From positions 1 to 64,000 of IMG/VR virus record IMGVR_UViG_3300046518_000226: a DNA stretch of 64,000 nt, one strand, 5' to 3'. Shown one piece after another: positions 1,953-61,966 of the stretch (position 1 is its first letter; each line of letters opens with the position of its first letter). Source of the DNA: a virus. Below the pieces are notes generated by a model, which was not told the origin of the DNA, did not search any database, and was given only the letters and a program-made list of their open reading frames with translations. Position numbers and translations under genes: made by a program.

Positions 1953-2305
1953 GCCGGGTCTACATCTCCGGCCCCATGACCGGCCTGCCAGAATTCAACT
2001 ACCCCGCGTTCAACGCTGCCGCTGCCCAGCTCCGCGCCGCCGGCCTGCACGTCGAGAACCCGGCCGAGAGCCCTGCGCCTGAGTGCAACAGCTGGCTCGG
2101 GTTCATGCGCCTGGCCGTCGCTCAACTGGCGACCTGCGACTACGTCGTCACGCTGCCCGGCTGGGAGAACTCCAAGGGTGCCCGCGTCGAGGTTGATCTG
2201 GCTCGCGCCCTGGGCTTCCCGGTCAAGCCGCTGCACGAGTTCCTGCGCATCGCCGAGCTGTGGCTGGCTGAGCCGACCGTCGTGACACGAGGCTCCGATG
2301 TATGA
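1949..2305 (+). CDS. DUF4406 / nucleoside deoxyribosyltransferase-like protein
   Basis: VYISGPMTG..FNYPAF, NPAE, LPGWENSKGARVE. Confidence 0.85.
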   Translation: MSRVYISGPMTGLPEFNYPAFNAAAAQLRAAGLHVENPAESPAPECNSWLGFMRLAVAQLATCDYVVTLPGWENSKGARVEVDLARALGFPVKPLHEFLRIAELWLAEPTVVTRGSDV

Positions 2306-3612
2306 GCCTGACCACGAACCTACCCTACGCCCTATGTCTGGGCGATTGCCTGGAGACGCTGCGCACGCTGCCGGATTGTTCGGTCGATAGCGTGGTGACA
2401 GATCCGCCCTACGGAATCCGGTTCATGGGCAAGAGCTGGGACGGCGAGGACATCGAGGCCCGCGCCGCTTACCGGGCCAGCATGCCGTCTCACGCTCCAG
2501 CCTGTGGCCCGAACGGCGGTCACCGCTCAGTCGCCGCCGAGGCCGGCAAGTACGACCTGACGCCCGAGGGTATGCGCGCCTTCCAGGCCTTCACGCTGGA
2601 ATGGGCCACCGAGTGCCTGCGCGTGCTCAAGCCTGGCGGTCACCTGCTGTCGTTCGCCGCTGCCCGCACCTACCACCACATGGCGGTCGGCATCGAGATG
2701 GCTGGCTTCGAGATCCGCGACCAGATCATGTGGGTGTTCGGCTCGGGCTTCCCGAAGTCGCACAACCTCAAGGGCGAGCACGACGGCAAGGGCACCGCGC
2801 TGAAGCCTGCGCATGAGCCAATCTGCATGGCCCGCAAGCCGTTCACCGGCACTGTCGCGGCCAATGTCGCCGTCCACGGCACCGGAGCGCTGAACATCGA
2901 CGCCTGCCGGATCCACGGCGCCGACGCGCAGGCTACCGAGTACACCCAGAAGCGGATGGCTCCCGGCCACGTGGTCAACGACACCGGCGCCTGGAAACAG
3001 GACGCGCAGTTCACCGGAACGCTGAAGGCTGGCCGCTGGCCCGCGAACCTGATCCACGACGGCAGCCCTGAGGTGGTGGTGATGTTCCCTGCGGAGGCCG
3101 GCGCCTCGTCGCGCGTCCGCGGCACCGAGGCCAGCGCCGCCAGTGTCGGGCTCATCACCGGGCACCGCGATCGGGTTGAGGGCGCCTTCCACGGCGACAG
3201 CGGCAGCGCAGCCCGGTTTTTCTACTGCGCCAAGACCAGCCGCACTGATCGGCACGAGGGCCTGACCAATCCCGGCCCGCAGTTCACCCGCGGCACCACC
3301 CTACGCAAGGTCGAGAACACCCCGACGACCGGGAACAACCACCCCACGGTCAAACCCACCGACCTCATGGCCTACCTGCTGCGCCTGGTGACCCCGGCCG
3401 GCGGCGTGGCGCTCGATCCGTTCATGGGCAGCGGCAGCACCGGCAAGGCAGCGATGCGCGAGGGCTTCCGGTTCATCGGGTGCGAGCTGGACGAGGCCTA
3501 CATGGCAATCGCCCGGGCACGCATCGAGCATGAGCATGACAAGGTGTCGGCAGCTGCTGAGCTGACCGCTGCCATGCCCGCTCAAGTCGACATGTTCGAG
3601 GCCCTGGCATGA
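2302..3612 (+). CDS. N6A/N4C DNA methyltransferase (beta class)
   Basis: DPPY near the N-terminus; HPTVKP and DPFMGSGSTG near the C-terminus. Confidence 0.95.
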   Translation: MSLTTNLPYALCLGDCLETLRTLPDCSVDSVVTDPPYGIRFMGKSWDGEDIEARAAYRASMPSHAPACGPNGGHRSVAAEAGKYDLTPEGMRAFQAFTLEWATECLRVLKPGGHLLSFAAARTYHHMAVGIEMAGFEIRDQIMWVFGSGFPKSHNLKGEHDGKGTALKPAHEPICMARKPFTGTVAANVAVHGTGALNIDACRIHGADAQATEYTQKRMAPGHVVNDTGAWKQDAQFTGTLKAGRWPANLIHDGSPEVVVMFPAEAGASSRVRGTEASAASVGLITGHRDRVEGAFHGDSGSAARFFYCAKTSRTDRHEGLTNPGPQFTRGTTLRKVENTPTTGNNHPTVKPTDLMAYLLRLVTPAGGVALDPFMGSGSTGKAAMREGFRFIGCELDEAYMAIARARIEHEHDKVSAAAELTAAMPAQVDMFEALA

Positions 3613-4004
3613 ACGCCTGTAGCTGGGTTGCCCCGATGGTCACCCTGCTCGACGGCCGCATCGTGCCCAGCGACAGCGAGGAGTGGCGTGCGGAATGCGA
3701 GGCGCGCCACATGCTCAGCTTCCCGCTCGGGCTCGATCGCGGAATGACGGGCGAGACCCGCAAAACCGCTCTTGAGCGCATCGGTCAGAAGCGAGGCCCT
3801 GAAGCCATGGCCGCCCTCAGCGAGGCCATGAGCGCCTGCGAGCCAGACCACGTCCTCAGGCTGCCGAACAAGCACCAGCGCAATCGGTACATCGAGGCCG
3901 TGAGCCACTTCGTCGGCGAGAACGCTGCCGAGCACCTGAAGCAGCGCGTGATGGCGCTGCACAAGGCCCGCGCCGCAAGTAATTGCGCCGAGTCATCAGC
4001 GTGA
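3609..4004 (+). CDS. Phage hypothetical protein
   Basis: ATGA overlap; SEEWRAECEAR motif. Confidence 0.75.
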   Translation: MNACSWVAPMVTLLDGRIVPSDSEEWRAECEARHMLSFPLGLDRGMTGETRKTALERIGQKRGPEAMAALSEAMSACEPDHVLRLPNKHQRNRYIEAVSHFVGENAAEHLKQRVMALHKARAASNCAESSA

Positions 4005-4059
4005 TGCATAATTGATCAACGCCGCCGTGGGCTGCACGGAAACACTAGGGGAAAGGATA

Positions 4060-4254
4060 GTGAAACTACTCAGAGCTTTGTGGGATGGTTTAGGGGACGA
4101 CAGGCTGGGCCTGCTGCTTGCTGGCGGGACGCTTGTCATAGCGATCACGGAACTCAAATCTGGTGACTACACGGCTGCTGTGATCGACTTGGCCTTCGCA
4201 GCAACCATCGGCTACTTCGCATGGCGCGACATTGGCCGGGCGGTGCGCTCGTGA
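4060..4254 (+). CDS. Small membrane protein
   Basis: GAAAGGA RBS + GTG; two hydrophobic stretches. Confidence 0.6.
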   Translation: MKLLRALWDGLGDDRLGLLLAGGTLVIAITELKSGDYTAAVIDLAFAATIGYFAWRDIGRAVRS

Positions 4255-4430
4255 ACGCCTTCGAGTTCATGTCGGGCAACCCGCTGCTGACCCTGCTGCT
4301 GGTCTACATCGTGGCGCGGTACGGCTTCCGCTGCTGGAACCGCTTGATGCGCCACCTGAACATCCGCAAGCACGGCTGGCCGCCTGCCCACCTCGACGCC
4401 GATGGTGACTTCGAGGATGACCAGCCATGA
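4251..4430 (+). CDS. Small membrane protein
   Basis: GTGA overlap; one TM segment; GWPPAHLDADGD tail. Confidence 0.65.
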   Translation: MNAFEFMSGNPLLTLLLVYIVARYGFRCWNRLMRHLNIRKHGWPPAHLDADGDFEDDQP

Positions 4431-7480: not shown

Positions 7481-7495
7481 TCGTGATGCGACCCT
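7481..7495 (+). promoter_or_regulatory. Late-promoter motif
   Basis: TCGTGA-tgc-GACCCT upstream of the terS candidate. Confidence 0.7.
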
Positions 7496-7525: not shown

Positions 7526-8071
7526 GTGTCAAACGATACCGACTTCACCACCCGAATGGGCGCCGCGCGGATCCTCTACGAGGGTTCGCACGGCATGACC
7601 CTCGGCGAGCTGGCCGAACTGAGCGGCCTGCCCCTGCGCAGCCTCAAGATCTACTCCCGCGACGAGGAGTGGAAGAAGCACCTCTCCACGAAGCACGGCG
7701 GGCGGTCGCCTGAGGCCGAGCAAGCACTTGCGTGGTTGCAGGGCGTTCCCGTCTCCGCCGAGACCGAGGGCCAGGAGGTCATCACCGCCGAGGAGGCCAG
7801 GGCGATCGAGACGCTGTCGGATCCCCTGCCGGCCGAGCGTGAAGCTTTGCTGTCCCGCCACAAGGAGGAGTGGAAGACCCCGCGCGGACTGGCAGCCGAG
7901 GCCGTGAAGTTGCGCGAGTCCAACCCGGGCAAGGCCTTCGAGCGCGCCAAGATGGCGAAGATCGTCAGCGAGAGCCTGACCCTGATCCAGGCTGGCGAGC
8001 GCCGCGCCCACGGCATCGACAAGCCAGACGGCAATCACACCGTGGTGCTTGAGCGAGGCGCATCGGTATGA
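7526..8071 (+). CDS. Putative terminase small subunit
   Basis: N-terminal HTH ending ..EEWKK, helical IQAGERRAHGI C-terminus, late motif upstream, followed by a ParB-MTase. Confidence 0.55.
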   Translation: MSNDTDFTTRMGAARILYEGSHGMTLGELAELSGLPLRSLKIYSRDEEWKKHLSTKHGGRSPEAEQALAWLQGVPVSAETEGQEVITAEEARAIETLSDPLPAEREALLSRHKEEWKTPRGLAAEAVKLRESNPGKAFERAKMAKIVSESLTLIQAGERRAHGIDKPDGNHTVVLERGASV

Positions 8072-10320: not shown

Positions 10321-10365
10321 TCGTCGTGAGCTGACCATGGCAGGAACTCTCCCGAGCACCCTGCC

Positions 10366-10596
10366 ATGCAAAACATCACCTTCCCTGTTTTCCCGATCGG
10401 CGACCTGTCCCCCACGGACTGGGTGCGCTTCCCTGATGGCGACGTGGGCGTGATCCACGACAAGGTCGACCACGAGGGCTATCGCAAGGCGTGCGTCGAG
10501 GTGCCGGGAGCCCGGTACCCGATCCGAATCGTCGAATTTGCGACATTGGTCGAGCACGTCACCGACCGGCAATGTGTAAAAACACACGGTCACTGA
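10366..10596 (+). CDS. Small hypothetical protein behind a late motif
   Basis: TCGTGA-gct-GACCAT at 10324-10338. Confidence 0.6.
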   Translation: MQNITFPVFPIGDLSPTDWVRFPDGDVGVIHDKVDHEGYRKACVEVPGARYPIRIVEFATLVEHVTDRQCVKTHGH

Positions 10597-14083: not shown

Positions 14084-14330
14084 CCGCAGCACCAAACTGG
14101 CGGTCGCGCTGATCGGCGCCACCGCATCCATGGGCGTGATGATTGGCTCGATGCTCAGCTCCGAGCCTGTACGCACCCGCCGCAAGCCAACCCATGCAGA
14201 ACGGACGCTCGATCGCTTCGAGCGCCGCGGGCAGTCACCCGAGCAGGCCCAGGTCGCCCTCGACGCCGCCCAGGCCAAACGCGACCGCCGCATCGCACGC
14301 AACAAGCGCCTAGCAGGGGAGGCGGTATGA
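14073..14330 (+). CDS. Hypothetical protein
   Basis: Overlap chain; hydrophobic N-terminus, basic C-terminus. Confidence 0.6.
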   Translation: MRSSRSTKLAVALIGATASMGVMIGSMLSSEPVRTRRKPTHAERTLDRFERRGQSPEQAQVALDAAQAKRDRRIARNKRLAGEAV

Positions 14331-15055: not shown

Positions 15056-15137
15056 ATCTGGGTTTCTCCGGCATTCCACGTAGACAAAACGGGCACTTAG
15101 CGGTGCCCGTTGTTGTTTCGGGCGCTATTCGGGCGCA
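15045..15137 (+). repeat. Composite core-IHF-tandem repeat site, copy 4
   Basis: CCAGA-TGCTGAA-TCTGG; ..GCACTTA ends 15099; TTTCGGGCGCTATTCGGGCGCA 15116-15137. Confidence 0.85.
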
Positions 15138-15154: not shown

Positions 15155-15169
15155 TCGTGATGCCACCAT
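15155..15169 (+). promoter_or_regulatory. Late-promoter motif, leaderless start
   Basis: TCGTGA-tgc-CACCAT-6 nt-ATG(15176). Confidence 0.8.
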
Positions 15170-20542: not shown

Positions 20543-22224
20543 ACGCCGTTACCGGAACCATCCACGGCGAGCTGATCGAGGACGTGAGCGAGTTCTTCGC
20601 TCCCATGGCGAGCGATCTGGTAGACAGCCTCGTCGGTGAGTACGACGCCACCCGCAAGCGATTGGAGCACATGGCGGCTGCCGTGTCCTCCGAGGCCTGC
20701 CGCGGCGTGCTGCACTACTTCGTTGAGGGCAACGTCGGCGATCAGCGCCACAGCATGCCCACGACTGTCGGGGCTTTGTTCGCGCTGGAAGGCGCCGTCG
20801 CGCACCTCAATGCCGACTTCTGGAACCGCGCCCTGCGCCTGACCGACGTCATCGACTACATGCCGCAGAAGCGGCGCGATGAGTGGTTCGAGCAGATCCG
20901 CAACCCGCTGGGCAAGAAGAAGCACCGCAGCAGCTGGGACAAGGATGCGCCCGAGTGGGAAGTCGCGCCCCTTCCTGAGTTCGAGGAGGACAGCGTCCGC
21001 GCCACCCTCTCTAGCCTACTTGCGAGCCGTGCCAAGTTCCTCGCCGAGCGCGTCGACGGCATCTTCCGCAGCCTGAGCCGCCAGCACGTCACCAACCAGC
21101 CTCAGGGCTTCAGCAAGCGCATGATCATCGCTGGCGTGCACAGCTACGGCACGGCCGGGCAAATCACCGACCTGCGCTGCGTGATCGCCAAGTTCATGGG
21201 GCGCGACGAGCCCAAGCACGGCGCCAGTGACCCGATCATCAAGGCCGCCGGCCGCCAGAACGGTCAGTGGATGACGATCGACGGCGGCGCGCTCCGGATC
21301 CGCGTTTACGGCGGCGTCGGCACTGCGCACCTGGAAGTTCACCCCGAGATGGCCTGGCGTCTGAACGCCATCCTTGCCAGCCTGTACCCGGCGGCGATCC
21401 CGGCCGAGTTCCGCGAGAAGCCGAAGCGCGCGAAGAAGATCAAGGACTTCGAGCTGTTCGACCGCCCGCTGCCGTTCGCGGTGGTCGACGTGCTGGCCCA
21501 GATGAAGCTCGGCTGGGAGCGCAAGGAGAACCCGCACCACCGTGAACACCCATTCCGTGATGTGCCGCGCACTCGCCGCTTCGATCACCATGGCGAGCGC
21601 GACAAGGCGACCATCGCCGAGGCCATCAAGGTGCTGGAGGCGATCGGCGGCGTGAAGGATGCGAAGGAGAGCTACTGGCGCTTCGACTACGAGCCCGCCG
21701 ACGTGCTCGACCAGATCGTGTGCTCAGGCTGCATCCCAGACCACAAGTCGCACCAGTTCTACCCGACGCCGCAGACCGTGGCCGAGGCCGCGATCGAGCT
21801 GGCGATGGTTGGCGCCGAGCCTGGGATGAACTGGCTGGAGCCGAGCGCAGGGCAAGGCGGGCTCGCCGACCTGATGCCCAAGGACGATACCTTCTGCGTC
21901 GAGATCAGCGACCTGCACTGCCAGATCCTCAAGGCGAAGGGGCACATCGTTGAGCAGGCGGACTTCCTCAAATGGGGGCTTTCGATCGGCAAATACGACC
22001 GCATCGTGATGAACCCGCCTTTCAGCGAAGGCCGCTGGCAAGCCCACGTCGAGCACGCTGCGACCATGGTCAAACCTGGTGGACGCCTCGTGGCTATTCT
22101 GCCGCCAACGGCAAAGAACAAGGACTGGCTGTCAGACTTCGATTTGGAATTCTCCAAAACCTACAGCAACGAGTTCGCCGGGACGAGCGTGTCGGTGGTG
22201 ATCCTGACCGCAACACGCAAGTAA
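20539..22224 (+). CDS. DUF4942-like domain + class I SAM (adenine) methyltransferase
   Basis: QFYPTP, LEPSAGQGGLA, VMNPPF. Confidence 0.88.
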   Translation: MNAVTGTIHGELIEDVSEFFAPMASDLVDSLVGEYDATRKRLEHMAAAVSSEACRGVLHYFVEGNVGDQRHSMPTTVGALFALEGAVAHLNADFWNRALRLTDVIDYMPQKRRDEWFEQIRNPLGKKKHRSSWDKDAPEWEVAPLPEFEEDSVRATLSSLLASRAKFLAERVDGIFRSLSRQHVTNQPQGFSKRMIIAGVHSYGTAGQITDLRCVIAKFMGRDEPKHGASDPIIKAAGRQNGQWMTIDGGALRIRVYGGVGTAHLEVHPEMAWRLNAILASLYPAAIPAEFREKPKRAKKIKDFELFDRPLPFAVVDVLAQMKLGWERKENPHHREHPFRDVPRTRRFDHHGERDKATIAEAIKVLEAIGGVKDAKESYWRFDYEPADVLDQIVCSGCIPDHKSHQFYPTPQTVAEAAIELAMVGAEPGMNWLEPSAGQGGLADLMPKDDTFCVEISDLHCQILKAKGHIVEQADFLKWGLSIGKYDRIVMNPPFSEGRWQAHVEHAATMVKPGGRLVAILPPTAKNKDWLSDFDLEFSKTYSNEFAGTSVSVVILTATRK

Positions 22225-22226
22225 TG

Positions 22227-22257
22227 CTTGCTCAAATCTGAGTAACGGCGCTACAAT
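22227..22257 (+). promoter_or_regulatory. Sigma70-like promoter with operator-like CTTGCTCAAAT
   Basis: TTGCTC-18 bp-TACAAT; perfect 13-bp hairpin 22281-22313 in the leader. Confidence 0.7.
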
Positions 22258-22341
22258 CACAGCGCATAAACAGAAATCACCGTAAGGCGCCAAAATACAC
22301 TTGGCGCCTTACGCACATCAAAAGCCTAACGAGAATAATGT

Positions 22342-23094
22342 ATGCGCGTAGAAAACGATGTTTTGAACGTCCTGAGCCGTGCTGATGTATTCGGAAATGT
22401 TCTGACGCTGGTCGGCCAGCTGGATCGCAAACTGTATGAGCGCACCAACAAGGTTCTGGAAGCCGCTGGTGGTAAGTGGAATCGCAAGGCAAAGGCCCAT
22501 GTGTTCGATGGTGATGCTGCTGAACGTGTGGAGCAGATCATCCTCACCGGCGACGTGCTTGTGCCGAAGGATGATTTTGAGTTTTTCCCAACGCCGCCGG
22601 AAGTCGTGGAGCGCCTGCTTGAAATCGCGGACATCCGGGATGGGATGCTGGTGCTGGAGCCTAGCGCAGGGCAGGGCGCGATCGCCAAGGCCGTACACGG
22701 TGCCGCTGAGGGCGTCATGCTCGATATGTATGAGCTGATGCCAGCGAACAACGATGCACTGCACGCACTGAACCTCAGCCTGTCAGGAATTGGCGAGCCG
22801 TGCGACTTCCTGACGGTCGAGCCGAAGCCGATCTATGACCGGGTGGTGATGAACCCGCCTTTTGGCCGTCAAGCTGACATCAGGCACGTGCAGCACGCAC
22901 TGAAGTTCCTGAAGCCTGGCGGTCTGCTGGTATCGGTGATGGGCGGCGGCGTCAGTTTCCGCGATAACAAGCTCACAACCGATTTCCGCAGCATCGTGGC
23001 GGCGAAGGGCGGCACCATCGAGGCGCTGCCGGACGGTGCTTTCAAGGCGTCCGGAACTATGGTCAAAACCGTCATTGTGACCATCCCGAACTGA
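22342..23094 (+). CDS. Class I SAM (adenine) methyltransferase
   Basis: FFPTP, LEPSAGQGAIA, VMNPPF, FKASGT.V.T. Confidence 0.9.
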   Translation: MRVENDVLNVLSRADVFGNVLTLVGQLDRKLYERTNKVLEAAGGKWNRKAKAHVFDGDAAERVEQIILTGDVLVPKDDFEFFPTPPEVVERLLEIADIRDGMLVLEPSAGQGAIAKAVHGAAEGVMLDMYELMPANNDALHALNLSLSGIGEPCDFLTVEPKPIYDRVVMNPPFGRQADIRHVQHALKFLKPGGLLVSVMGGGVSFRDNKLTTDFRSIVAAKGGTIEALPDGAFKASGTMVKTVIVTIPN

Positions 23095-23146
23095 TCAACC
23101 CAGTCATCAACAAACCGCCGGGCGCTGCCCGGCAGGGGAAAGGAAG

Positions 23147-23917
23147 GTGAGTGAACCAATTGTGCTGAACCTCGACGCGATCGAGGCGGCGGCGAAGGCG
23201 GCAATGACAGAGCAGGTGTCAACGCCTTTCCTGCAAAAGACCAATAGCGAGTGCGCAGAGTGGATGCGCTCGTTCTACAAGCCGAGCGCCATTCCGCGCC
23301 TCGATCGCCACTGCACGTGGGCCTGGCAGGAGCAAGAGCGCCGCCATGCTCCGATGATTCTGGAGCTGGTGCGCCGGCTGCGGGCTGCTGAGGCTCTGGC
23401 GGCATCGCGCATCGAGCAGATCCCGGTCGACGCAAAGGTGGTGTCCGTCTTCTACGACTTCACTCCCGACCATCAGGATCAAGCTGAGGAATTCGCCGAA
23501 GCCATCAAGAAGCGCTGCACGAGCGGGCGCTGGACGCTGGTGGCGTTTTTCCCGGTCGGCGCCAGCATCACCGCCCTGAACGATGAACAGCTGCGCGAGG
23601 CCGGGCTTGCGCTGGCTGATAAATCGCTGCCGATCCAGGAAGCTTGGGAGGCCGCCGGCGGGAACCCTGACATCAAGGCGACCCGCGAGGAATTGATCTC
23701 CGCCCTTCGCATGATGGACGAGGCAGAGGATGAATCCGAGCAGAAGGCGGCCGAGCAGAAAGGCAAAATGTTGGTCGACGCTGCTGCCTTGCGCCAGGTG
23801 CTGCAAGCTCTGAACGGCCCAGGCCATCATATCCGCGAACTGCAGGTGTGCCGCGGTCTGCCTGACAGCCCGATCGAAAAGCTGGTTGCCGAGTTCAACG
23901 CGCAGGCCGGCGGCTGA
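23147..23917 (+). CDS. Ead/Ea22-like mosaic phage protein
   Basis: LDAIEAAAKAA..ILELVRRLRAAE; ALRQVLQALNGPGHHIRELQ. Confidence 0.75.
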   Translation: MSEPIVLNLDAIEAAAKAAMTEQVSTPFLQKTNSECAEWMRSFYKPSAIPRLDRHCTWAWQEQERRHAPMILELVRRLRAAEALAASRIEQIPVDAKVVSVFYDFTPDHQDQAEEFAEAIKKRCTSGRWTLVAFFPVGASITALNDEQLREAGLALADKSLPIQEAWEAAGGNPDIKATREELISALRMMDEAEDESEQKAAEQKGKMLVDAAALRQVLQALNGPGHHIRELQVCRGLPDSPIEKLVAEFNAQAGG

Positions 23918-23920
23918 CAC

Positions 23921-24001
23921 CCTGATCCTCAATCAGGTGCGCAGGTAACCAAATCAGTAACTTAGCCGGTAACGGCTCAATTCGGGCGCTCATCGGGCGC
24001 C
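23921..24001 (+). repeat. Composite core-IHF-tandem repeat site, copy 5 (about one helical turn shorter)
   Basis: CCTGA-TCCTCAA-TCAGG; AATCAGTAACTTA 23952-23964; ATTCGGGCGCTCATCGGGCGCC 23980-24001. Confidence 0.85.
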
Positions 24002-24028
24002 CCAACAATCAAAACGAGGGTAAACCCC

Positions 24029-24445
24029 GTGAGCAAATATCCCAAGCTGTACCGCGCCTTCGACTCGATCGGGCCAGACGGCCTGACAATCGAGTTCAAG
24101 GAGTACACCGTGATCGGTGAAACTCCGCAGTGCTGGTATGTGATCGCAAGTGATCTGGCTCATTGGCCTGAAATCAAAGGCTTCGAGAAGCACGTCCTTC
24201 AGAAGCGCAAACGTGTGCTGAAGAATCAGAATGGCCGCCGCTTCTGTTACGTGTCGAAGTCCGACGCGATGAAGTCCTACCAGATCCGCAAGCGCCGGCA
24301 GCTGGGTCACGCCGACCTGGCGATCGCTCGTGCCCAGGCCGGTATCGCTGCTGCTGAAAAGTTGCTCGCCCTTGAAAGCGAGATTGAGCTGCCGATGACC
24401 CAGCCGAGCGAGTACATCCAGGGTCTCAACTGGGAGGTATGCTGA
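24029..24445 (+). CDS. Phage hypothetical protein
   Basis: VIGETPQCWYV..RRFCY; GAGG RBS. Confidence 0.8.
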   Translation: MSKYPKLYRAFDSIGPDGLTIEFKEYTVIGETPQCWYVIASDLAHWPEIKGFEKHVLQKRKRVLKNQNGRRFCYVSKSDAMKSYQIRKRRQLGHADLAIARAQAGIAAAEKLLALESEIELPMTQPSEYIQGLNWEVC

Positions 24446-24921
24446 TGAGCACCTTCCAACTTACACCAGAGATCACCATCAAGATCGCCCGCTGGTTCGC
24501 CAGCGACTACACTGGCGTCTCATCCGAAACCATCGCCTCGATCGCGCTGGGGATGACCGAGCCCGAGCGTCACGGCTGGGACATGCCTTACGACAGTGGC
24601 GACTTCGGCCGCTGCTACCGCCTGATCAAGAAAATTCCCGAGCTGCGGGATGTTCTGCCCCGGGTTGCCGAGCTGTGCCCGCAGTGGAAGCCCATCGTCG
24701 AGATCTGGGACGAGCTGGTCGCGCTGTACGAGGCGGACGAGGCCGAGGAGCCAGTCTACGAGAAGGAGCCACCGAAAGGGCGTGGCCGGTTCCGCCGCAC
24801 CATCATGGTCAACAAGCGCTCGTGCAACGACCGGATCCGCGGTCTGCGCGACGCCTGCATGCTGGCTGGTGGCTGGACTAAGACCCGCAGCGGCTGGGAG
24901 AAGAAGGGAGGTGGCCTGTGA
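24445..24921 (+). CDS. Phage hypothetical protein
   Basis: TGVSSETI..PYDSGDFGRCYRL..W..IVEIWDEL. Confidence 0.8.
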   Translation: MSTFQLTPEITIKIARWFASDYTGVSSETIASIALGMTEPERHGWDMPYDSGDFGRCYRLIKKIPELRDVLPRVAELCPQWKPIVEIWDELVALYEADEAEEPVYEKEPPKGRGRFRRTIMVNKRSCNDRIRGLRDACMLAGGWTKTRSGWEKKGGGL

Positions 24922-25187
24922 GCCTGTCATCGCAAGACCAGTTCGAGCAGAGCTACAGCGACTTCACCGGGCACCCGGTCGCGTTCATCAAAGCGCAGCG
25001 GCTATCCAACGACAGCTATGCGGTTCCGCGCATTGCCACGGCGTACACCTGGTGGAAGCGGGCGCGTGCCGGGATGGTGGTTGAGCTGCCAAAGGGCGGC
25101 AACATGTGGGATGGCGAGCCCGTCGAGATCAGCCGGGCCGAAGCAGTCGCTGCTATCGAAGCTGTTGGCGGGACGGTGGCGCCATGA
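24918..25187 (+). CDS. Hypothetical protein
   Basis: GTGA overlap; GGAGG RBS. Confidence 0.7.
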   Translation: MSLSSQDQFEQSYSDFTGHPVAFIKAQRLSNDSYAVPRIATAYTWWKRARAGMVVELPKGGNMWDGEPVEISRAEAVAAIEAVGGTVAP

Positions 25188-25918
25188 TCGAAACCATCGA
25201 CATCTCGCGCATCAAGCGCTTCTCCGCCAACATCGCCGGCCGCGACTTCGCTGTCGGCGACATCCACGGGCATTTCAGCTTCCTGCAGGCTGCTCTGGAC
25301 GCCGTTGGCTTTGATCCCGCTGTTGATCGCCTGTTCAGCGTCGGTGACCTGGTCGACCGCGGGCCGGAGTGCCGCGACGTGCTCGACTGGCTCGCTAAAC
25401 CCTGGTTCCACGCTGTTCGCGGAAACCACGATGACTACGTGGTTCGCTTCGACACCTGCGACGTGGAGAACTGGATCTACAACGGGGGCTCGTGGTTCGC
25501 TGGCCTCTCGCTGTTCGAGCAGAAGGAGTTCGCCGTCCAGTTCGCAGAGCTGCCGATCGCGATTGAGGTCGAGACGCCTTCAGGGCTGATCGGCATCGTG
25601 CACGCCGACTGCCCGTTCTCCGCGTGGGAGCAGCTGCGCCAGGAGCTGGAAACGCCGGAGAGCAACAAGCGGCTCAAGCTGGTGCACAACACCTGCATGT
25701 GGTCGCGTAGCCGGATCGAGCACGGTGAGACGCATGGCGTTGAAGGTGTACGGGCGCTGGTGGTCGGGCATACCCCGGTACGTGCACCGGCACTGCTCGG
25801 CAACGTGATCCACATCGACACGCGCGGCTGGCGGCCTGACGACGGTGGCTACTTCACCCTGCTGAACCTGGCGACCCTCGAAACCATTCCGCCAATGCCG
25901 GCCAAACTGGAGTGGTGA
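25184..25918 (+). CDS. Ser/Thr protein phosphatase (lambda NinI-like)
   Basis: GDIHG, GDLVDRG, RGNHD, VHAD, GHTP, IDT. Confidence 0.95.
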   Translation: MIETIDISRIKRFSANIAGRDFAVGDIHGHFSFLQAALDAVGFDPAVDRLFSVGDLVDRGPECRDVLDWLAKPWFHAVRGNHDDYVVRFDTCDVENWIYNGGSWFAGLSLFEQKEFAVQFAELPIAIEVETPSGLIGIVHADCPFSAWEQLRQELETPESNKRLKLVHNTCMWSRSRIEHGETHGVEGVRALVVGHTPVRAPALLGNVIHIDTRGWRPDDGGYFTLLNLATLETIPPMPAKLEW

Positions 25919-25925
25919 ACCTACC

Positions 25926-25950
25926 AACCCGCTTCGGCGGGTTTTTCTTT
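25926..25950 (+). terminator. Intrinsic terminator
   Basis: AACCCGC-TTCG-GCGGGTT + T run. Confidence 0.9.
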
Positions 25951-25952
25951 GC

Positions 25953-26052
25953 CATGCTGCCAGCAAGGTAGTTGCATGCTGCAATCTATCTGCTACCTGT
26001 CTGCAAGCCGGCGGCAAGGTTGCTGCCAGCTAACAGCAAGGTTGCAGCATGC
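25953..26052 (+). repeat. Centromere/operator-like 11-bp periodic repeats
   Basis: caatctatctg ctacctgtctg caagccggcgg caaggttgctg ccagctaacag caaggttgcag (25982-26047). Confidence 0.75.
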
Positions 26053-26684
26053 CATCAGTTGTCGCGCTCGTGTCTCAGAAGGGCGGAGTAGGGAAATCAA
26101 CGATTGCCAGGGCACTTGCCCGTGAGGCTGCGGCGGGCGGGCTGTCCGTGAAGGTGGCGGATCTGGACACCCAACAGGGCACGTCGGTGGACTGGCACCG
26201 CACGAGGCTGCACGCAGGCCATGAGCCGGTGGTGTCGGTCGAAGCCTTCGCCACGGCAGCCCAGGCGCTGGCGGTTGCTGGCTCCTACGACCTGCTCATC
26301 ATCGACGGCCCAGCCCGCACCAGCTCGGCGACGCTGGAGATCGCCAAGGCTTCGAACCTGGTGGTGCAGCCGACCGGCGCCTCTGTCGATGACCTGCGGC
26401 CGGCGGTGCGGGAGTTCCATGCGCTGGTGAAGGCCGGGATCCCGGCTTCACGTCTGGCGTTCACGCTCAACCGGATCGGCACCGAGGCTGAGGAAGCGGA
26501 GGCGCGGGCCTACCTCGTCGAGGCCGGATATCAGGTTCTGGACGGCGTCCTGGTCGAGCGGCCGGCATACCGCCAGGCGCAGAACGTGGGGCACTCGGTG
26601 ACAGAGACGCGGTACCAGAAGCTGAATGCCAGGGCGGACACCCTGATCCAATCCCTCATCGATCGGGTCGCGGAAAATGGCTGA
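26049..26684 (+). CDS. parA: ParA family partition ATPase (type Ib)
   Basis: QKGGVGKST, DLDTQ, IIDGP; no N-terminal HTH. Confidence 0.95.
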   Translation: MPSVVALVSQKGGVGKSTIARALAREAAAGGLSVKVADLDTQQGTSVDWHRTRLHAGHEPVVSVEAFATAAQALAVAGSYDLLIIDGPARTSSATLEIAKASNLVVQPTGASVDDLRPAVREFHALVKAGIPASRLAFTLNRIGTEAEEAEARAYLVEAGYQVLDGVLVERPAYRQAQNVGHSVTETRYQKLNARADTLIQSLIDRVAENG

Positions 26685-26979
26685 TCTGTCGAAGCTGAAG
26701 AAGCGCGGCACCCTCGGGGCTCCACCTGGTGAAGACGAGGCCAGCCCCAATCTAGCGGCGCCGGAGGTTGCGCCGCCTACCCCAGCACCCGAGCCTGCCA
26801 AAGCCCGCCGGGACGGCCGGAGCGCTCGCCGCACGAACCGCACGCTGCCGTTTGCCACCCGGGTGAGCCAGCAGTTCGACGACCGCATCCGCGATATCGC
26901 CGAGCGCGATGGTCTGCTGCTGGTGGAGCTGCTGGAGCGCGCGATCGAGGCCTACGAGCGCGAGCGTGCGAAGGGATAG
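26677..26979 (+). CDS. ParG-like ribbon-helix-helix partition protein
   Basis: Small gene overlapping parA; disordered N-terminus; FATRVS..F...IRDIA...LLVELLERA. Confidence 0.75.
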   Translation: MADLSKLKKRGTLGAPPGEDEASPNLAAPEVAPPTPAPEPAKARRDGRSARRTNRTLPFATRVSQQFDDRIRDIAERDGLLLVELLERAIEAYERERAKG

Positions 26980-26982
26980 CCG

Positions 26983-27009
26983 CAAGCTTGCGGCAAGGTT
27001 GCAGCATGC
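26983..27009 (+). repeat. Downstream copy of the partition repeats
   Basis: GCAAGGTTGCAGCATGC 26993-27009 is identical to 26036-26052. Confidence 0.8.
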
Positions 27010-27035
27010 TCCTCCGCTCCGGCGGGGGAGCGCCG

Positions 27036-27050
27036 TCGTGATGTCACCAT
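27036..27050 (+). promoter_or_regulatory. Late-promoter motif, leaderless start
   Basis: TCGTGA-tgt-CACCAT-6 nt-ATG(27057). Confidence 0.8.
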
Positions 27051-27056
27051 CGCGGC

Positions 27057-29657: not shown

Positions 29658-29680
29658 GGGGCTTCGGCCCCTTATTCTTT
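29655..29680. terminator. Hairpin terminator between convergent genes
   Basis: TAAGGGGC-TTCG-GCCCCTTA. Confidence 0.8.
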
Positions 29681-30070: not shown

Positions 30071-30147
30071 ACATCCTCCAGATTGGTCGACGTAGCGGGC
30101 CTGTGACCCGCTGTCGACGATTATAGCGTCACTTGGTTGTGGGCGGC

Positions 30148-33631: not shown

Positions 33632-33689
33632 GAGGCACCTCAGTGTTGTGAATGAGGCGTCATTGTCGCGTCACGTCTTCCCGGCGGGC

Positions 33690-34324: not shown

Positions 34325-34456
34325 AGGCACCTCAGGTTGGTTGAGGCTTTATGATGCTGTCACGCCAATTGTCGGGCATAAAAAACCCGCCGATTTGAGC
34401 ATCACTTACTCCGAGGAGGTTGAGAGGCTTGGCGGGTTTTTGTGGTGCTCGGGTGG

Positions 34457-35338: not shown

Positions 35339-35353
35339 TCGTGACGCCATGAT
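35339..35353 (+). promoter_or_regulatory. Late-promoter motif, leaderless start
   Basis: TCGTGA-cgc-CATGAT-7 nt-ATG(35361). Confidence 0.8.
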
Positions 35354-36989: not shown

Positions 36990-37029
36990 GCGCTGCGCCG
37001 CGAGTAGTCGTGACGCCTATGATAGCTCC

Positions 37030-39091: not shown

Positions 39092-39106
39092 TCGTGACGG
39101 CACGAT
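39092..39106 (+). promoter_or_regulatory. Late-promoter motif, leaderless start
   Basis: TCGTGA-cgg-CACGAT-6 nt-ATG(39113). Confidence 0.8.
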
Positions 39107-45519: not shown

Positions 45520-45567
45520 AGCGTCGCGTCACGATATGCGGCCGGCAATTCGTCGTGACGGCAGGAT
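45520..45567. promoter_or_regulatory. Back-to-back late-promoter motifs
   Basis: Minus: TCGTGA-cgc-GACGCT-5 nt-ATG; plus: TCGTGA-cgg-CAGGAT-6 nt-ATG. Confidence 0.8.
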
Positions 45568-48917: not shown

Positions 48918-49019
48918 TCACCGCCATCGCTGAAAGCAGAAAGGCCGCCCCGTGCGGCCTTTTTGTCGTGACCGGACAATGTCCATGAAGATTTTTCCCC
49001 AACCTGATCAGGAGTTGTC

Positions 49020-49385
49020 ATGAGCCGCGCACCTGCTGCTACCGATTTTCACGTCGACGTCGATGGCGTCGGCCAGTTTGTTTTCGCCAAGCGCACGATG
49101 CGCGACGAGCTGCGCATTGCAGCCGAATATTCTCGCCTGACCGAGGGCGTCGAGACGCCGACCAACTTCCTCGCCACGGTCGCAGGCTGGATCTCCACCT
49201 TGAAGGCTCTGACCGTCGAAGCCCCGCACGGCTGGGATCTCGATGAGATGGATCCGTTCGATGATGAGACCCACGAGAAAATCCTGAAGGTTTACGCGTC
49301 GCTCCGCGTCAAGGAGGGCTCTTTTCGCAAAGGAAAGAACCCGCCAAGCGAAGGCAGCGGGCCGGGATCTGTCGAAGCGACTTAG
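49020..49385 (+). CDS. Tail assembly chaperone (G); +1 frameshift form (GT) ends at 49641
   Basis: Between tube and tape measure; TCT TTT CGC at 49320-28; late motif at 48966. Confidence 0.8.
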   Translation: MSRAPAATDFHVDVDGVGQFVFAKRTMRDELRIAAEYSRLTEGVETPTNFLATVAGWISTLKALTVEAPHGWDLDEMDPFDDETHEKILKVYASLRVKEGSFRKGKNPPSEGSGPGSVEAT

Positions 49386-49646: not shown

Positions 49647-52427
49647 ATGAGCATCAAGATCCCCGTCAACGCTGAGCTGAACCAGCAGGACGTCCAGCAG
49701 CAGATCCAGCAGATGCAGGATGCCTTGAACAACCTCGGGCGGACTGCTCAGCAGGCGGGGAAGATCAAGTTCAATCCGGTCAACAGCGTCACTCTCGACT
49801 CCGTCAAGAAGATGCGAGCCGAGTTCGACGCCATGGTGCGGATGTCGCCCGGGCTGAAGCGTGCCCTTGAGGCTGGCGGTCAGGGCGGCAAGTCGTTCGA
49901 TGAGGTTCGCTGGGGTAAGGTCTGGCTCGATGAGAACCAGCGCGCCGGGCATGCCGCCTCCATGCTCAAACGGCTGCGCCCGAGCGCTGTTGAGGAAGTC
50001 ACTCATGCTCCGGCGCCGTCAGGAACCGGCGGTAGCGGTAGCGGCGGCGGTGGGCGCCGTCGCGGCGGTGGTGGTGGTGGTGGTGGCGATGATCGGACTC
50101 CTGGCACAGGCGGCAGCAGCTGGCGCAGGGCAGCCGCTGGTGGCGCTGCGGGCGTTGCCGGTGGGGTTGCCAGCCAAGTCGGCGGTATGGCCGGTGGCGT
50201 CGCCTCTGGCGCCCTCGCTGGCGGCCTTGCCGGTGGCCCTATCGGTGCGATCGTCGGCGGCCTGGCCGGCTCGCTGACAAGCCTGCTCGGCGTGATCGGG
50301 GATGCCCGTGATATCGCCATCAGCATGGACACGCTCAAGCGCACCTTGGGCGACACCAACGTCTCGTTCAACGACCTGCAGGGCAAGACGCGCAGCCTCG
50401 CCGATGAATTCAGCCTGAGCGACACAGAGGCGGTCGCGCTGACCAAGCGCTACGCTAACCTCTCCGGCTCCGACAAGAACCTCGGAGGCCTGCGCGACGA
50501 GGTCGGTGTCGGTGTCGGCTTCTCCCGCTCGTTCGGCCTCGCCCCGTCCGCCGGCGTGGACTTCTTCGGTCAGATGAAGGGCATGGGGATTACCCAGAAT
50601 GCCGACGACAACAAGCGCCTGGCGCTGCTGATCGGCGAGAGCGTTGCCAAGGCCGGCGACCTGCCTCGCATGGCGGACGTGCTGGCTGGGCTCAGCCGCT
50701 ACATGGAGAGCGCTGCCCGCACCAGCCTGACCAGCCCGAACTCGGCCGCTTGGCTGTCGCGGTTCGCAGGGCTGGAGAAATCCGGCATGGCGGGCATGGA
50801 TCCGACTACCGCAGCCAGCATCATCGGCAGCATCGACGGCTCGATCCGCCAAGGTGGCATCACCGAGGCCGGCAAGAACTTCATGAACTCCACGCTCCAG
50901 AAGGATCAGGGGCTCAACACGATCCAGGCAGCCATCCAGCTGGAGGGTGGCGCGTTCGGTACCGGCCGCTCCACGTTCGGGGCCGACTCCCCAATGTCGC
51001 GCTTTTACTCGCGCTTTGGCGGCGGGTCGCCGCTGAGTTCGTGGACTTCGGACGAGACCAACGTCAGCGTCCTTCAGAAGAAGCTGATTAAGCAGTATGA
51101 GGGCCGGCCGCCGGAGCTGATGCTGGACGCGTTCAAGAACACGTTCGGCACCAGCTACGGGCAGGCGGCCACATGGATGTCGACCGATCCGAAGCAGAAC
51201 GACGCCATGCTCAAGCGCATGCAGCGGCTGGGCATCAACTGGAAGGATGTCAACGCGACCGGCGTTTCGCAGCTGAGCGAGATCGAGTCGAACAGCTCGC
51301 TGTCTGAGGCTCAGAAGGATGCGATGGTCAAGGACACCGCGTCCAAGAATCAGGAAGACACGATCGGCTCTGAGGCCAGGAAGGCATCAATCGACGGCGC
51401 GAACGCCATGGTGCGGATCGCCGAGCAGGGTCTGCCGATGCTCAGCTCGATCCAGGCTGGCGTGCTCAAGCTCGCCGGCATCGACCCGATGAGCCCGCAG
51501 AAAGAGCAGGCGAAGTCGGAACACCAAAAGCGCATGGACGCGGTCGACAATGGCCCGCTCGCCGCCGAGTACGGCAAGGCCGTGAAAAACTATAAGGAGA
51601 TCACCCCGCTGGTGAAGCAGATCACCGGGCTGGGGCTCACCGACGAGCAGCAGCAGGCGAAGGACTGGGTCGATAGCGCTGGCGCGGATCTGACCGCCGC
51701 GCGCAAGGCTGAGGACGCCCGATACAAAGGCGAGAAGGCCAAGCTCGAAGCGGCTAGCTCCGCCATGCTGAACCCAACCGTCACGCCGTCGACCAGCAGC
51801 ACTCCCGCATCTCCAGCCGATGCTGCCGCTCCTTCGCCAGGCCCGGCGGCATCGCCAAGCCAAGCAACACCGGGGCAGGCCTCTGGCGGTTCCAGAGTGT
51901 CTGGCGCCACGCCGGAGCTGCTGGCCCGGGCGGCTGAGTCTGATCGCAAGGCCGGCCTCCCTGAAGGCACCACGGCGGCGCTGATGATGCAGGAAAGCTC
52001 GTTCAACTCCGGCGCCGTGAGCAGCGCGGGTGCGCGCGGACTGCACCAGATGATGCCGAAGAACGTCGACACGTTCTCCCGGCGCGTCGGCCGCCAGCTC
52101 GACCCGACCAACACCGAAGACTCGTTCTACATGTACGACGAGCTGATGAAGGAGCGCAAAGCCAAGTACGGCGGCAACACCGAGAAGATGCTGCGCAGCT
52201 ATCATGGCGGATACGACGAGAGCAAATGGGGCGCGGTCAACGAGGATTACGTTCCCGCGATCGAGCGCCGCAAACGAGAACTGGCTGCATCCGGCCAAAC
52301 AACTGCGTCGATGCAGCACAACGTCAACGTTGATGTCACAATGCGCGACCAGTCGGGCAATAAAGTCAACGACGCCACCATCAACACCACGGTCGGCAAG
52401 CCTACCGTCAGCGGTACTAACCCATGA
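49647..52427 (+). CDS. Tape measure protein with C-terminal lytic transglycosylase
   Basis: MMQESSFN..AVSSAGARGLHQMMP..SYHGG. Confidence 0.9.
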   Translation: MSIKIPVNAELNQQDVQQQIQQMQDALNNLGRTAQQAGKIKFNPVNSVTLDSVKKMRAEFDAMVRMSPGLKRALEAGGQGGKSFDEVRWGKVWLDENQRAGHAASMLKRLRPSAVEEVTHAPAPSGTGGSGSGGGGRRRGGGGGGGGDDRTPGTGGSSWRRAAAGGAAGVAGGVASQVGGMAGGVASGALAGGLAGGPIGAIVGGLAGSLTSLLGVIGDARDIAISMDTLKRTLGDTNVSFNDLQGKTRSLADEFSLSDTEAVALTKRYANLSGSDKNLGGLRDEVGVGVGFSRSFGLAPSAGVDFFGQMKGMGITQNADDNKRLALLIGESVAKAGDLPRMADVLAGLSRYMESAARTSLTSPNSAAWLSRFAGLEKSGMAGMDPTTAASIIGSIDGSIRQGGITEAGKNFMNSTLQKDQGLNTIQAAIQLEGGAFGTGRSTFGADSPMSRFYSRFGGGSPLSSWTSDETNVSVLQKKLIKQYEGRPPELMLDAFKNTFGTSYGQAATWMSTDPKQNDAMLKRMQRLGINWKDVNATGVSQLSEIESNSSLSEAQKDAMVKDTASKNQEDTIGSEARKASIDGANAMVRIAEQGLPMLSSIQAGVLKLAGIDPMSPQKEQAKSEHQKRMDAVDNGPLAAEYGKAVKNYKEITPLVKQITGLGLTDEQQQAKDWVDSAGADLTAARKAEDARYKGEKAKLEAASSAMLNPTVTPSTSSTPASPADAAAPSPGPAASPSQATPGQASGGSRVSGATPELLARAAESDRKAGLPEGTTAALMMQESSFNSGAVSSAGARGLHQMMPKNVDTFSRRVGRQLDPTNTEDSFYMYDELMKERKAKYGGNTEKMLRSYHGGYDESKWGAVNEDYVPAIERRKRELAASGQTTASMQHNVNVDVTMRDQSGNKVNDATINTTVGKPTVSGTNP

Positions 52428-54699: not shown

Positions 54700-54725
54700 G
54701 AACGTCGTGACGCCACCATGGCGTC

Positions 54726-58707: not shown

Positions 58708-58763
58708 GTCTGCCGTGCGTCGTGACACCACTATCGTGGCTACGACATACGCGCAGGCCTTTT

Positions 58764-59213: not shown

Positions 59214-59222
59214 GGTAATCCC

Positions 59223-60785: not shown

Positions 60786-60797
60786 GGGGTTTAGAAA

Positions 60798-61217
60798 ATG
60801 TTCTATTCAGCTTCAACACCCGGCTTTTATAGCCGCGAGATCCATGGCGACAATATGCCAGATGACGCCGTTGAGATCACCGACGAACTCTATGCTGAGC
60901 TGTTCGAGGGCCAGTCAGCTGGCAAGCACATCGTGGCCGACAAGAAGGGACGCCCGATTTTGGTCGATCCTCCTCCACCATCAGCGGAAACCTTGGCGTT
61001 GATCGAGCGCGCCTGGCGCGATGCGGAGCTGACTGCCACGGACGGCATCGTGGCGCGCCACCGGGATGAGATCGAGGTGAAGGCCAGTACCACGCTCACG
61101 GCCAAGCAGTATGTCCAGCTGCAAGGCTACCGGCAGGCGTTGCGGAGCTGGACAGAGGCTGAGGCTTTCCCGGCGAAGGAGTCCCGCCCAGAGGCTCCCG
61201 AGTGGCTTAATACTTAA
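60798..61217 (+). CDS. Tail fibre assembly chaperone
   Basis: FYSAST.GFY..PDDAVEIT..ERAWRD..YRQALR.W. Confidence 0.9.
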   Translation: MFYSASTPGFYSREIHGDNMPDDAVEITDELYAELFEGQSAGKHIVADKKGRPILVDPPPPSAETLALIERAWRDAELTATDGIVARHRDEIEVKASTTLTAKQYVQLQGYRQALRSWTEAEAFPAKESRPEAPEWLNT

Positions 61218-61285
61218 TTAAACCGCTCGTCGTGAGCAGACAATAGTGTTGCCGCAATTTTGCAGCGACACTATTGGAATTCCTC

Positions 61286-61858
61286 ATGTCCGTAGACATC
61301 ACAGTTGACATTGTTTACTTCACCACCGGTGGCAAAATCGAGAAGCTGACTGACGGCACCGTCTCGGTTCAAACCACCTCGCCGGTCGGCCCTGGCGCCG
61401 AGTTCCTGCTTCGTCCGGATGGCCGGATCACAGTCGGCGCGAATACCCTCGCGACCCAAGCCTACGTCGACAGCAAGGTCGGCACCGGTGGCGGCACCAC
61501 TCCTACTGACCCCGGCACCCCGGCTCCGGTAGCGTGGGTTTTCCCATCTCCGCTGAACGGCTGGGGCAGCCACCCGGTGACCACCAGTGAGCCGCGCGAC
61601 CGTGTTAGCTACCGCAAGGTCGGAAACACGCTTGAGTTCAACGGCGACCTGATGAGCACTGGCGTCACCGCGCCGGGTACTCTGATGTTCACCCTGCCGT
61701 CCGGCAATCGACCAGCCACTGGCGTGAAGACGCTGCTCGTGGCCGCCAACGGTGAAGCCGGCGTGATCAAGGTCTACCCGAACGGCAACGTGATCTACGC
61801 GGCCGGCCCGGTTGGTGGCTACGTCTCGCTCAATGGCGTCTCGTTCCCGCTGGATTGA
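61286..61858 (+). CDS. Short fibre/receptor-binding-like protein
   Basis: LATQAYVD; LNGW..YRKVG..FTLPSG.RP beta-sandwich tip; late motif at 61230. Confidence 0.7.
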   Translation: MSVDITVDIVYFTTGGKIEKLTDGTVSVQTTSPVGPGAEFLLRPDGRITVGANTLATQAYVDSKVGTGGGTTPTDPGTPAPVAWVFPSPLNGWGSHPVTTSEPRDRVSYRKVGNTLEFNGDLMSTGVTAPGTLMFTLPSGNRPATGVKTLLVAANGEAGVIKVYPNGNVIYAAGPVGGYVSLNGVSFPLD

Positions 61859-61966
61859 TCCACCTCGCGCCACGGATGGCGCTCCTACCACCCGTCAGGC
61901 CCGGCATGGGCGCCATGTCGTCGTGACATCAACCTCCGCTTAGTCACTCAACAAAGCGGACGCCCC

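Follow-up and report, generated by a model that had tools for sequence, protein, structure and literature searches.

What is the short sequence, built on TCGTGA, that recurs in front of virion, packaging and lysis genes of the phage represented by IMG/VR virus record IMGVR_UViG_3300046518_000226, and what reads it? The stretch analysed here (the window) corresponds to bases 1-64,000 of this 94,122-bp record. A first-pass annotation of the window interpreted TCGTGA-N3-nAnnnT as a phage-specific late promoter, often so close to a start codon that the mRNA would be leaderless. The analysis reported here indicates that the 16-bp signal containing this motif probably defines a class of phage-specific promoters devoid of any -35 element, in which a -10 hexamer recognized by the host sigma-70 would be associated with a box, GTCGTGA, read by a phage product. 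This class is undescribed and clade-wide: no mention of such promoters was found in the literature on phages Touem01, Dolphis, PHB04, Mecenats66 or their relatives, and the word 'promoter' occurs zero times in the Mecenats66 paper.

The first 129 bases of the record are repeated at its end (127/129 identical); the assembly therefore closes on itself, and the 'linear' record would correspond to a closed circle or to a terminally redundant molecule. Among named phages, Touem01 of Pseudomonas (91.6 kb) comes closest; it is syntenic and shares ~79% nucleotide identity across the aligning part. Remoter relatives include phages of Pseudomonas (Dolphis and Jeremy), Bordetella (vB_BbrM_PHB04, hereafter PHB04) and Aeromonas (ST4), and phages of enteric bacteria, i.e. 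Escherichia coli (ECML-606-1), Yersinia (fHe-Yen8-01), Enterobacter (phiT5282EW) and Morganella (Mecenats66). According to a crude gene map, 69 of the 82 genes located between 1 and 64 kb are oriented rightward; this block encodes the terminase and the portal, protease, capsid, tail, baseplate, fibre and lysis proteins, in addition to DNA methylases and a 1204-amino acid (aa) protein bearing an ADP-ribosyltransferase domain. The genes found between 64 and 94 kb, mostly leftward, include recombination and replication genes and many small genes.

By itself, TCGTGA occurs at the rate expected by chance (40 found vs 38.3 ± 6.1 in shuffles). The composite TCGTGA-N3-NANNNT, compared with 100 dinucleotide shuffles, is found 15 times in the 94,122-bp genome (14 times on the plus strand and once on the minus strand) vs 2.1 ± 1.3 in the shuffles (maximum 7), and CGTGA-N3-NANNAT is also found 15 times vs 2.2. 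All the TCGTGA coordinates listed by the first-pass annotation (14 on the plus strand and 45534 on the minus strand) were found again, including the site with a 4-nt gap at 37008 (TCGTGA-CGCC-TATGAT). Furthermore, a weight matrix trained solely on 78 sites from seven relatives gives, with a cut-off of 14 bits, 19 matches in this genome vs 1.0 in shuffles. This matrix recovers the two minus-strand variants that had been proposed at 33676 (ACGTGA, 14.3 bits) and 34365 (GCGTGA, 15.1 bits) and adds a site located outside the window, at 64627 on the minus strand, before a DksA/TraR-like gene. The sites had been described as nearly all intergenic, and indeed 17 of the 19 matrix sites are intergenic, vs an intergenic share of the genome of ~12.5%, and each of them is oriented toward the next gene. 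Terminator-like hairpins with T-runs lie directly 5' of several sites (hairpin at 15088, sites 39092 and 48966, and PHB04 10712 and 20538).

The consensus of the aligned sites is (C)G-TCGTGA-Y-G-n-S-A-C-n-A-T, in which the A and the last T of the 3' hexamer are invariant. Counting from the first base of TCGTGA, the information content of 61 sites from four phages is limited to positions -1 to +14, with a weak CA at +20/+21; among these sites, there is no conservation upstream of G(-1), including where a -35 element or the -35 element of an extracytoplasmic function (ECF) sigma factor would lie.

The same signal was found in the relatives, with a total of 93 strict sites in eight genomes. It occupies orthologous junctions in Touem01, Dolphis, PHB04, ECML-606-1, fHe-Yen8-01 and ST4, while the flanking sequences are not conserved; the junctions kept are those located before the methylase gene, the ADP-ribosyltransferase gene, the terminase, portal and protease genes, the divergent 44657/45574 pair, the tail-tube region, the baseplate genes and the lysis genes. 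In relatives, the strand of the sites agrees with that of the genes (9/0, 8/0 and 11/1, vs 0-1 for a reversed-pattern control). Mecenats66 carries only two strict matches, with degenerate versions elsewhere. The exact leaderless form of the motif (16 specified bases) matches at least 119 stretches of IMG/VR contigs, a total little higher than that expected by chance from a collection of this size; about 20 IMG/VR contigs among the matches listed are 82-98 kb long. If the promoter reading is correct, this motif would be the signal for late transcription throughout a widespread lineage of ~90-kb phages. Besides dozens of metagenomic contigs of 82-98 kb, the lineage includes cultured members that infect E. 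coli, Yersinia, Enterobacter, Morganella, Aeromonas, Pseudomonas and Bordetella.

The distance between the signal and the start codons provides a second line of evidence. In 43 of the 93 sites, an ATG opening a long open reading frame (ORF) is located at +20 to +22, i.e. 5-7 nt past the hexamer, a position expected by chance in ~5% of cases. This genome displays eight such ATGs, as the first-pass annotation had pointed out for most of them: 15176, 27057, 39113, 45574 and 54726 at +21, 2302 and 35361 at +22, and 45514, on the minus strand, at +20. A distance of 5-7 nt leaves no room for a Shine-Dalgarno sequence. The base preceding these ATGs is a C in 32 of the 43 cases, and C(-1)A(+1) is the usual context of transcription starts. 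In the other 50 sites, an A is modestly over-represented at +21 (20/50) and leaders of 38-55 nt are found, several of them with AGGAG or GGAGG before the start codon. The combined geometry, start context and upstream terminators fit a -10 hexamer followed by a putative transcription start ~7 nt downstream, and support the prediction of leaderless mRNAs at about half of the sites. Leaderless mRNAs are considered rare in Proteobacteria; if these predictions hold, they would reveal a systematic use of such mRNAs in phages of these bacteria.

The annotators of Touem01, Dolphis and PHB04 independently picked the same ATGs for the terminase, portal, protease and large ADP-ribosyltransferase or helicase genes. 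The displacement of the portal start to 35361, previously proposed from the motif, is upheld, because the upstream ATG (35349), which lies within the hexamer, is missing in relatives and because all portals begin with MTD(I/N/T)A, the relatives starting at the same MTD(I/N)ALEV. The starts of several genes can also be corrected in Dolphis, where motifs followed by an ATG at +21 (14299-14322 and 23667-23690) indicate starts at 14320 and 23688, while the record annotates 14482 (gp15) and 23748 (gp25); the protein matches reach to the upstream ATGs.

Could the motif act in RNA, or as a DNA site other than a promoter? TCGTG can pair with the CATGA found at start codons, with perfect inner stems at some sites (54705, 45553 and 15155), the hairpin at 54705 including 11 pairs. 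Site-specific hairpins link the promoter and start regions, and the phage has genes for at least four DNA methylases. A processing or translation signal, a hairpin arm, an operator or a methylase target might be envisioned, transcription then coming from elsewhere. Such a role is nevertheless very improbable. The start codon lies either 21 nt or 38-55 nt away, which does not suit a ribosome-binding site, the invariant A-N3-T hexamer would have no role, and several sites directly follow terminators. Moreover, the hairpins of the sites show no fixed-register covariation (best z 2.4 over ~300 position pairs), and the bulk of the hairpin signal corresponds to the constant complementarity between TCGTG and CATGA; swapping 3' segments among sites leaves a weak energy excess (-6.6 vs -5.9 kcal/mol, p ~0.01). 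A promoter made of structured DNA, like those of N4, was rejected on the same grounds, i.e. the lack of fixed-register covariation and the weak excess after segment swap.

The hairpins are better explained as a result of where the promoters lie, these hairpins blocking the translation of read-through RNA. For the 50 sites with leaders, the probability that the Shine-Dalgarno/start region is unpaired is 0.51 in the predicted own transcript, 0.33 in read-through RNA and 0.43 when the upstream segment is borrowed from a different site (p = 4e-5), statistics that are inflated since orthologous sites are not independent. At 10324, 48966 and 61230, the 5' arm of the hairpin is upstream of the predicted start site and the 3' arm covers the start codon, so these start-masking hairpins would form only in RNA read through from upstream. 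They span 10324-10368, where the hexamer/start-site region pairs with the ATG, 48966-49025, where GTCATGA, at the start codon, is the partner of the box, and 61241-61276, where a 12-bp hairpin associates the hexamer/start-site region with the start codon. These folding models are suggestive of a masking of start regions in read-through RNA. In T4 late genes, occlusion of the ribosome-binding site likewise makes translation transcript-specific: there as here, read-through RNA folds over the start region and the RNA made from the own promoter is devoid of the 5' arm. Unlike that of T4, the occlusion described here is predicted only.

How would these promoters work? The invariant A and T of the 3' hexamer, at -11 and -7, fit the two bases that are flipped out of the -10 element by factors of the sigma-70 family, and this hexamer would be read by the host sigma-70 holoenzyme. 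The box GTCGTGA, at about -22 to -16, would replace the missing -35 element and is probably read by a clade-conserved protein encoded by the phage. Transcription would begin ~7 nt past the hexamer; in half of the sites, this base would be the A of the start codon, leading to leaderless mRNAs, and in the remaining sites transcription would give a 38-55-nt leader with a Shine-Dalgarno sequence. The putative regulon would comprise the terminase, portal and protease genes, the genes of the head, tail, baseplate and fibre, the lysis genes, and those of DNA methylases and of the large ADP-ribosyltransferase protein. As it covers these genes and not the leftward replication/early block between 64 and 94 kb, where only weak matches to the motif were found, it is predicted to belong to a middle/late class.

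The role given to the box has to be weighed against recognition by the host sigma-70 alone, the sites being promoters without a -35 element, whose -10 is extended far upstream, and independent of any phage factor and of any temporal regulation. Together with the invariant -11A and -7T, the Y-G at -15/-14 is reminiscent of an extended -10 element, RNA polymerase is conserved enough over the host range to explain the conservation of the motif, and the searches described below did not identify any factor. However, the base at -12 is C or G and not T. Position 6 of the motif is a C in most sites and a T in about one-third, and position 7 is a G in 50-60%, so a true TGn extension (T/C-G at positions 6-7) is found in about one-third of the sites only; specificity is therefore attributed to GTCGTGA, which to our knowledge matches no known host promoter element. 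Furthermore, the TAtnnT boxes preceding the zinc-protein genes (see below) belong to a different type, and the near absence of the motif from the 30-kb leftward block suggests a separate class of promoters. Reliance on the host sigma-70 alone is thus unlikely.

A phage-borne reader is the simplest solution since the box is unchanged in phages whose hosts belong to two classes, the Gamma- and Betaproteobacteria. This reader might be a cryptic sigma factor or another specificity subunit of RNA polymerase, too divergent for Pfam, that would replace the association of sigma-70 with an activator. The compact 16-bp signal without a -35 recalls the late promoters of T4 that depend on gp55, and many conserved proteins of this phage are devoid of annotation. 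Six-frame searches with Sigma70_r2 and r4_2 (E <= 1) and with r4 (E <= 10) gave no match, although the controls were positive, and the structural models of the two best candidate factors do not resemble sigma domains, so a cryptic sigma appears a little less plausible still than the host sigma-70 acting alone. An ECF-type promoter, in which a GGAAC-type -35 lies 16-17 bp upstream of a CGTC-type -10, found no support either: no conserved -35 element was detected upstream of the box and no Sigma70 domain in the six frames.

Searches for known activators and polymerases were also made. The Lpa family (PF25716), which includes the activator of P1 late promoters, has no match (E <= 10) in this genome, ECML-606-1, ST4 and PHB04, the P1 control giving 1.9e-58; in fHe-Yen8-01, the single sub-threshold match contains an internal stop. 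Lpa searches with phmmer (E > 0.5) and tblastn (E > 4) were negative, and hhalign of Lpa against both families of zinc proteins gave a probability of 0.1%. Neither Ogr/Delta of P2 nor Mor/C of Mu (PF04606 and PF08765) has any match with E <= 10, and nothing is conserved here at -55 or between -33 and -51, where these activators bind. T7-like RNA polymerase (PF00940) gave no match, but its control was silent too.

A table of presence/absence of the candidate factors over the eight genomes was then used. The AraC-type protein (10830), which the first-pass annotation had put forward as a possible activator, is excluded, as are the DksA/TraR-like protein (64328), the integrase and others, all absent from the E. 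coli and Yersinia phages ECML-606-1 and fHe-Yen8-01, which keep the motif. Another suggested activator, ORF 7210, can hardly be retained: it has no homologue in Touem01, Dolphis and PHB04, the three relatives searched, the other four genomes not being covered. Four conserved proteins that are neither structural nor replicative remain. The first two, encoded by adjacent genes on the plus strand, are a clade-specific 181-aa Cys-rich protein (480-1025) and a 135-aa zinc-ribbon protein (1026-1433) whose gene is always next to that of the 181-aa protein. The third is a 131-aa DUF7696 protein (3609-4004), whose own gene follows a motif promoter. The last one, located outside the window (74619-74888), is an 89-aa helix-turn-helix protein belonging to a broad family of small proteins without assigned function; its occurrence parallels that of the motif, and no copy was found in Mecenats66, whose motifs are degenerate.

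Among these, the zinc pair (480-1433) is the best candidate, a tentative choice. Out of 50,697 phage records, the pair was found in exactly ten records, all from the clade and corresponding to nine distinct phages. In Mecenats66, where the box is degenerate, the zinc proteins are also the most divergent (30-33% identity). The two genes of the pair are the first ones oriented rightward downstream of an AT-rich control region full of repeats. A TATTAT -10 box (440-445), with TTCGTG 17 bp upstream, precedes the first zinc-protein gene by 35 nt, and a canonical TAtnnT box (TATTAT, TATGAT, TATACT or TAAAAT) is found ~35-45 nt before the pair in seven of the eight genomes; this is likely an early promoter of host sigma-70 type. 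A scan of the early block with the sigma-70 consensus was uninformative. The model of the 181-aa protein is confident (predicted local distance difference test, pLDDT, 88.6), and that of the 135-aa protein (pLDDT 75) includes a zinc ribbon formed by residues 37-89. It is possible, if doubtful, that the pair constitutes a new type of specificity factor that replaces -35 recognition on the sigma-70 holoenzyme in hosts ranging from E. coli to Bordetella, leaderless starts and hairpins then tying translation of the late genes to their own promoters. Whatever its reader, the promoter class would point to a factor that redirects the host RNA polymerase without being a recognizable sigma factor or Lpa.

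Several of these results weigh against a promoter class that depends on a phage-encoded reader. Besides the negative searches for sigma, Lpa, Ogr/Delta and Mor/C domains, the TGn extension present in one-third of the sites makes some activity with the host holoenzyme alone possible. The fold predicted for the 181-aa protein, however confident, has no counterpart in the PDB (no Foldseek match with E <= 0.001; best VIA Z 2.7). The best matches of the 135-aa ribbon, Elf1, TFIIS and Rpb9, are RNA-polymerase-associated proteins, but their scores (Z 4.2-3.7) are non-significant, and Protein Atlas, Pfam and PHROGs hold nothing for either zinc protein. Lastly, the fHe-Yen8-01 orthologue of the 135-aa protein (2052-2396) is annotated as 'particle associated protein', a label that, if correct, may fit a packaged or injected protein rather than one made early.

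The AT-rich control region upstream of the zinc pair covers positions 1-360 of the window and 93,800-94,122 of the genome. It contains GGTAACC/GGTTACC repeats (12 of the 16 copies of the genome) and short tandem runs, and comparable repeat-rich regions precede the zinc-protein genes in relatives. Located at the ends of the record, this region could possibly be an origin, a pac site or an early control region.

The analogy with the late promoters of P1 drawn by the first-pass annotation stands for the architecture and fails for membership. According to the annotation of NC_005856, these promoters consist of a 9-bp '-22 region' separated by 4 bp from a -10 hexamer; the seven that were extracted (LPmat, LPpro, LPlyz, LPdar, LPs, LPsit and LPpac), which belong to a system activated by Lpa and dependent on the host SspA, can be written AAGTGACTT-N4-TAnnAT. 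Both systems lack a -35 element and display a short palindromic box just upstream of the -10 hexamer, with a common palindromic core, GTGAC (AA-GTGAC-TT in P1, C-GTGAC-G here). Furthermore, P1, also a myovirus of ~94 kb, carries many copies before packaging, head, tail, lysis and packaged anti-restriction genes. However, the 9-bp box AAGTGACTT of P1 lies 4 bp from TAnnAT, whereas here (C)GTCGTGA lies 3 bp from SAnnAT, which brings the GTGAC core 4 bp closer. Unlike P1, this phage has no Lpa detectable with PF25716, phmmer, tblastn or hhalign, and its structural genes are unrelated. Leaders of ~20 to 45 nt or more follow all seven extracted P1 promoters, whereas here about one site in two would be leaderless. 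Kinship with P1 was rejected, as only SSB, tail-fibre repeats and a methylase segment match. The present promoters would thus operate in the manner of the P1 late promoters without belonging to their family.

The packaged Dar anti-restriction genes of P1 have a parallel in PHB04, where a 2097-aa DarB-like methyltransferase, an Ulx-like protein and a 1518-aa helicase are encoded in the head module (21098-32555), each behind a motif. The 1204-aa ADP-ribosyltransferase-domain protein of the present phage (15176-18790) holds a place analogous to that of these PHB04 genes.

Other phages use comparable solutions. The late promoters of T4 (TATAAATA) depend on gp55/gp33, and Thermus phage P23-45 has promoters without a -35 and many leaderless transcripts. 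As in these phages, a compact signal of extended -10 type, devoid of a -35, would serve the late genes here, but its sequence differs, no gp55-like or other sigma factor is detectable and the hosts are Proteobacteria. The leaderless cI mRNA made from lambda PRM begins at its start codon and lacks a Shine-Dalgarno sequence, as predicted here; unlike this single case, a systematic arrangement is predicted for the present lineage (8 genes of this genome; 43 out of 93 sites over the eight genomes).

The individual sites of the window can be described from left to right. The first one (TCGTGA-CAC-GAGGCT, 2280-2294, plus strand, 16.7 bits; Touem01 orthologue at 1212) falls in the last 26 bases of ORF 1949-2305 and precedes ATG 2302 of a 436-aa DNA methylase. 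The putative promoter TCGTGA-TGC-GACCCT (7481-7495, plus strand, 19.2 bits), with orthologues at Touem01 6230 and Dolphis 72812, is followed by a 45-nt leader, by gene 7526-8071 and by a methylase gene starting at 8068. Another, TCGTGA-GCT-GACCAT (10324-10338, plus strand), precedes gene 10366-10596. The site TCGTGA-TGC-CACCAT (15155-15169, plus strand, 23.9 bits; orthologues at Touem01 14195 and Dolphis 84104), downstream of the terminator-like hairpin 15088-15111, is located before the ATG (15176) of the ADP-ribosyltransferase-domain protein. The large terminase (ATG 27057) follows TCGTGA-TGT-CACCAT (27036-27050, plus strand), which has orthologues at Touem01 25256, Dolphis 93487 and ST4 74824.

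In the head region, the portal gene (ATG 35361) is preceded by TCGTGA-CGC-CATGAT (35339-35353, plus strand; orthologues at Touem01 30809, Dolphis 4529, PHB04 39197 and ST4 70171), and the head maturation protease gene (ATG 39113) by TCGTGA-CGG-CACGAT (39092-39106, plus strand), which follows a T-run terminator and has orthologues in Touem01, Dolphis, PHB04 and ST4. Two predicted promoters are arranged back to back, TCGTGA-CGC-GACGCT on the minus strand (45520-45534), before the minus-strand gene starting at ATG 45514, and TCGTGA-CGG-CAGGAT on the plus strand (45553-45567), before ATG 45574. This divergent pair is kept in all relatives, and in those infecting E. coli, Yersinia and Morganella, 45553 is the sole site that is predicted to be leaderless too.

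Further right, TCGTGA-CCG-GACAAT (48966-48980, plus strand), directly 3' of a terminator hairpin, is followed by a 54-nt leader with AGGAG and by ATG 49020, and TCGTGA-CGC-CACCAT (54705-54719, plus strand) by ATG 54726 of a baseplate-region gene. The site TCGTGA-CAC-CACTAT (58720-58734, plus strand; Touem01 orthologue at 56268) precedes ATG 58764, which is the gene start, as in Touem01, GTG 58722 being inside the box. The last two, TCGTGA-GCA-GACAAT (61230-61244) and TCGTGA-CAT-CAACCT (61921-61935), both on the plus strand, precede TTG 61274 and ATG 61967, respectively; the latter gene belongs to the lysis region, and its product is 47% identical to the translated PHB04 DNA at an annotated holin gene.

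Among the four ORFs longer than 800 aa, matches were obtained for three (to an ADP-ribosyltransferase domain, to terminase and, according to the annotation of relatives, to primase-helicase), and the fourth (49647-52427) is the counterpart of the transglycosylase gene of the tail region of relatives.

The variant with a 4-nt gap (37008-37023, plus strand) is followed by a ~290-nt non-coding leader and by GTG 37301. Between 37024 and 37300, there is no credible ORF before this GTG, which has AGGA as Shine-Dalgarno sequence, and this region may encode a small RNA or act as a long structured leader; in Dolphis, a leaderless promoter directly precedes the orthologue of gene 37301. The two minus-strand variants are ACGTGA-CGC-GACAAT (33662-33676), before gene 33044-33631, and GCGTGA-CAG-CATCAT (34351-34365), before gene 33731-34330, both genes being on the minus strand. 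The sole Rfam match in the window, to the abiF RNA motif (RF03085; 34385-34436, minus strand; 48.7 bits vs a gathering score of 37), sits just upstream of the latter variant and its gene on the same strand.

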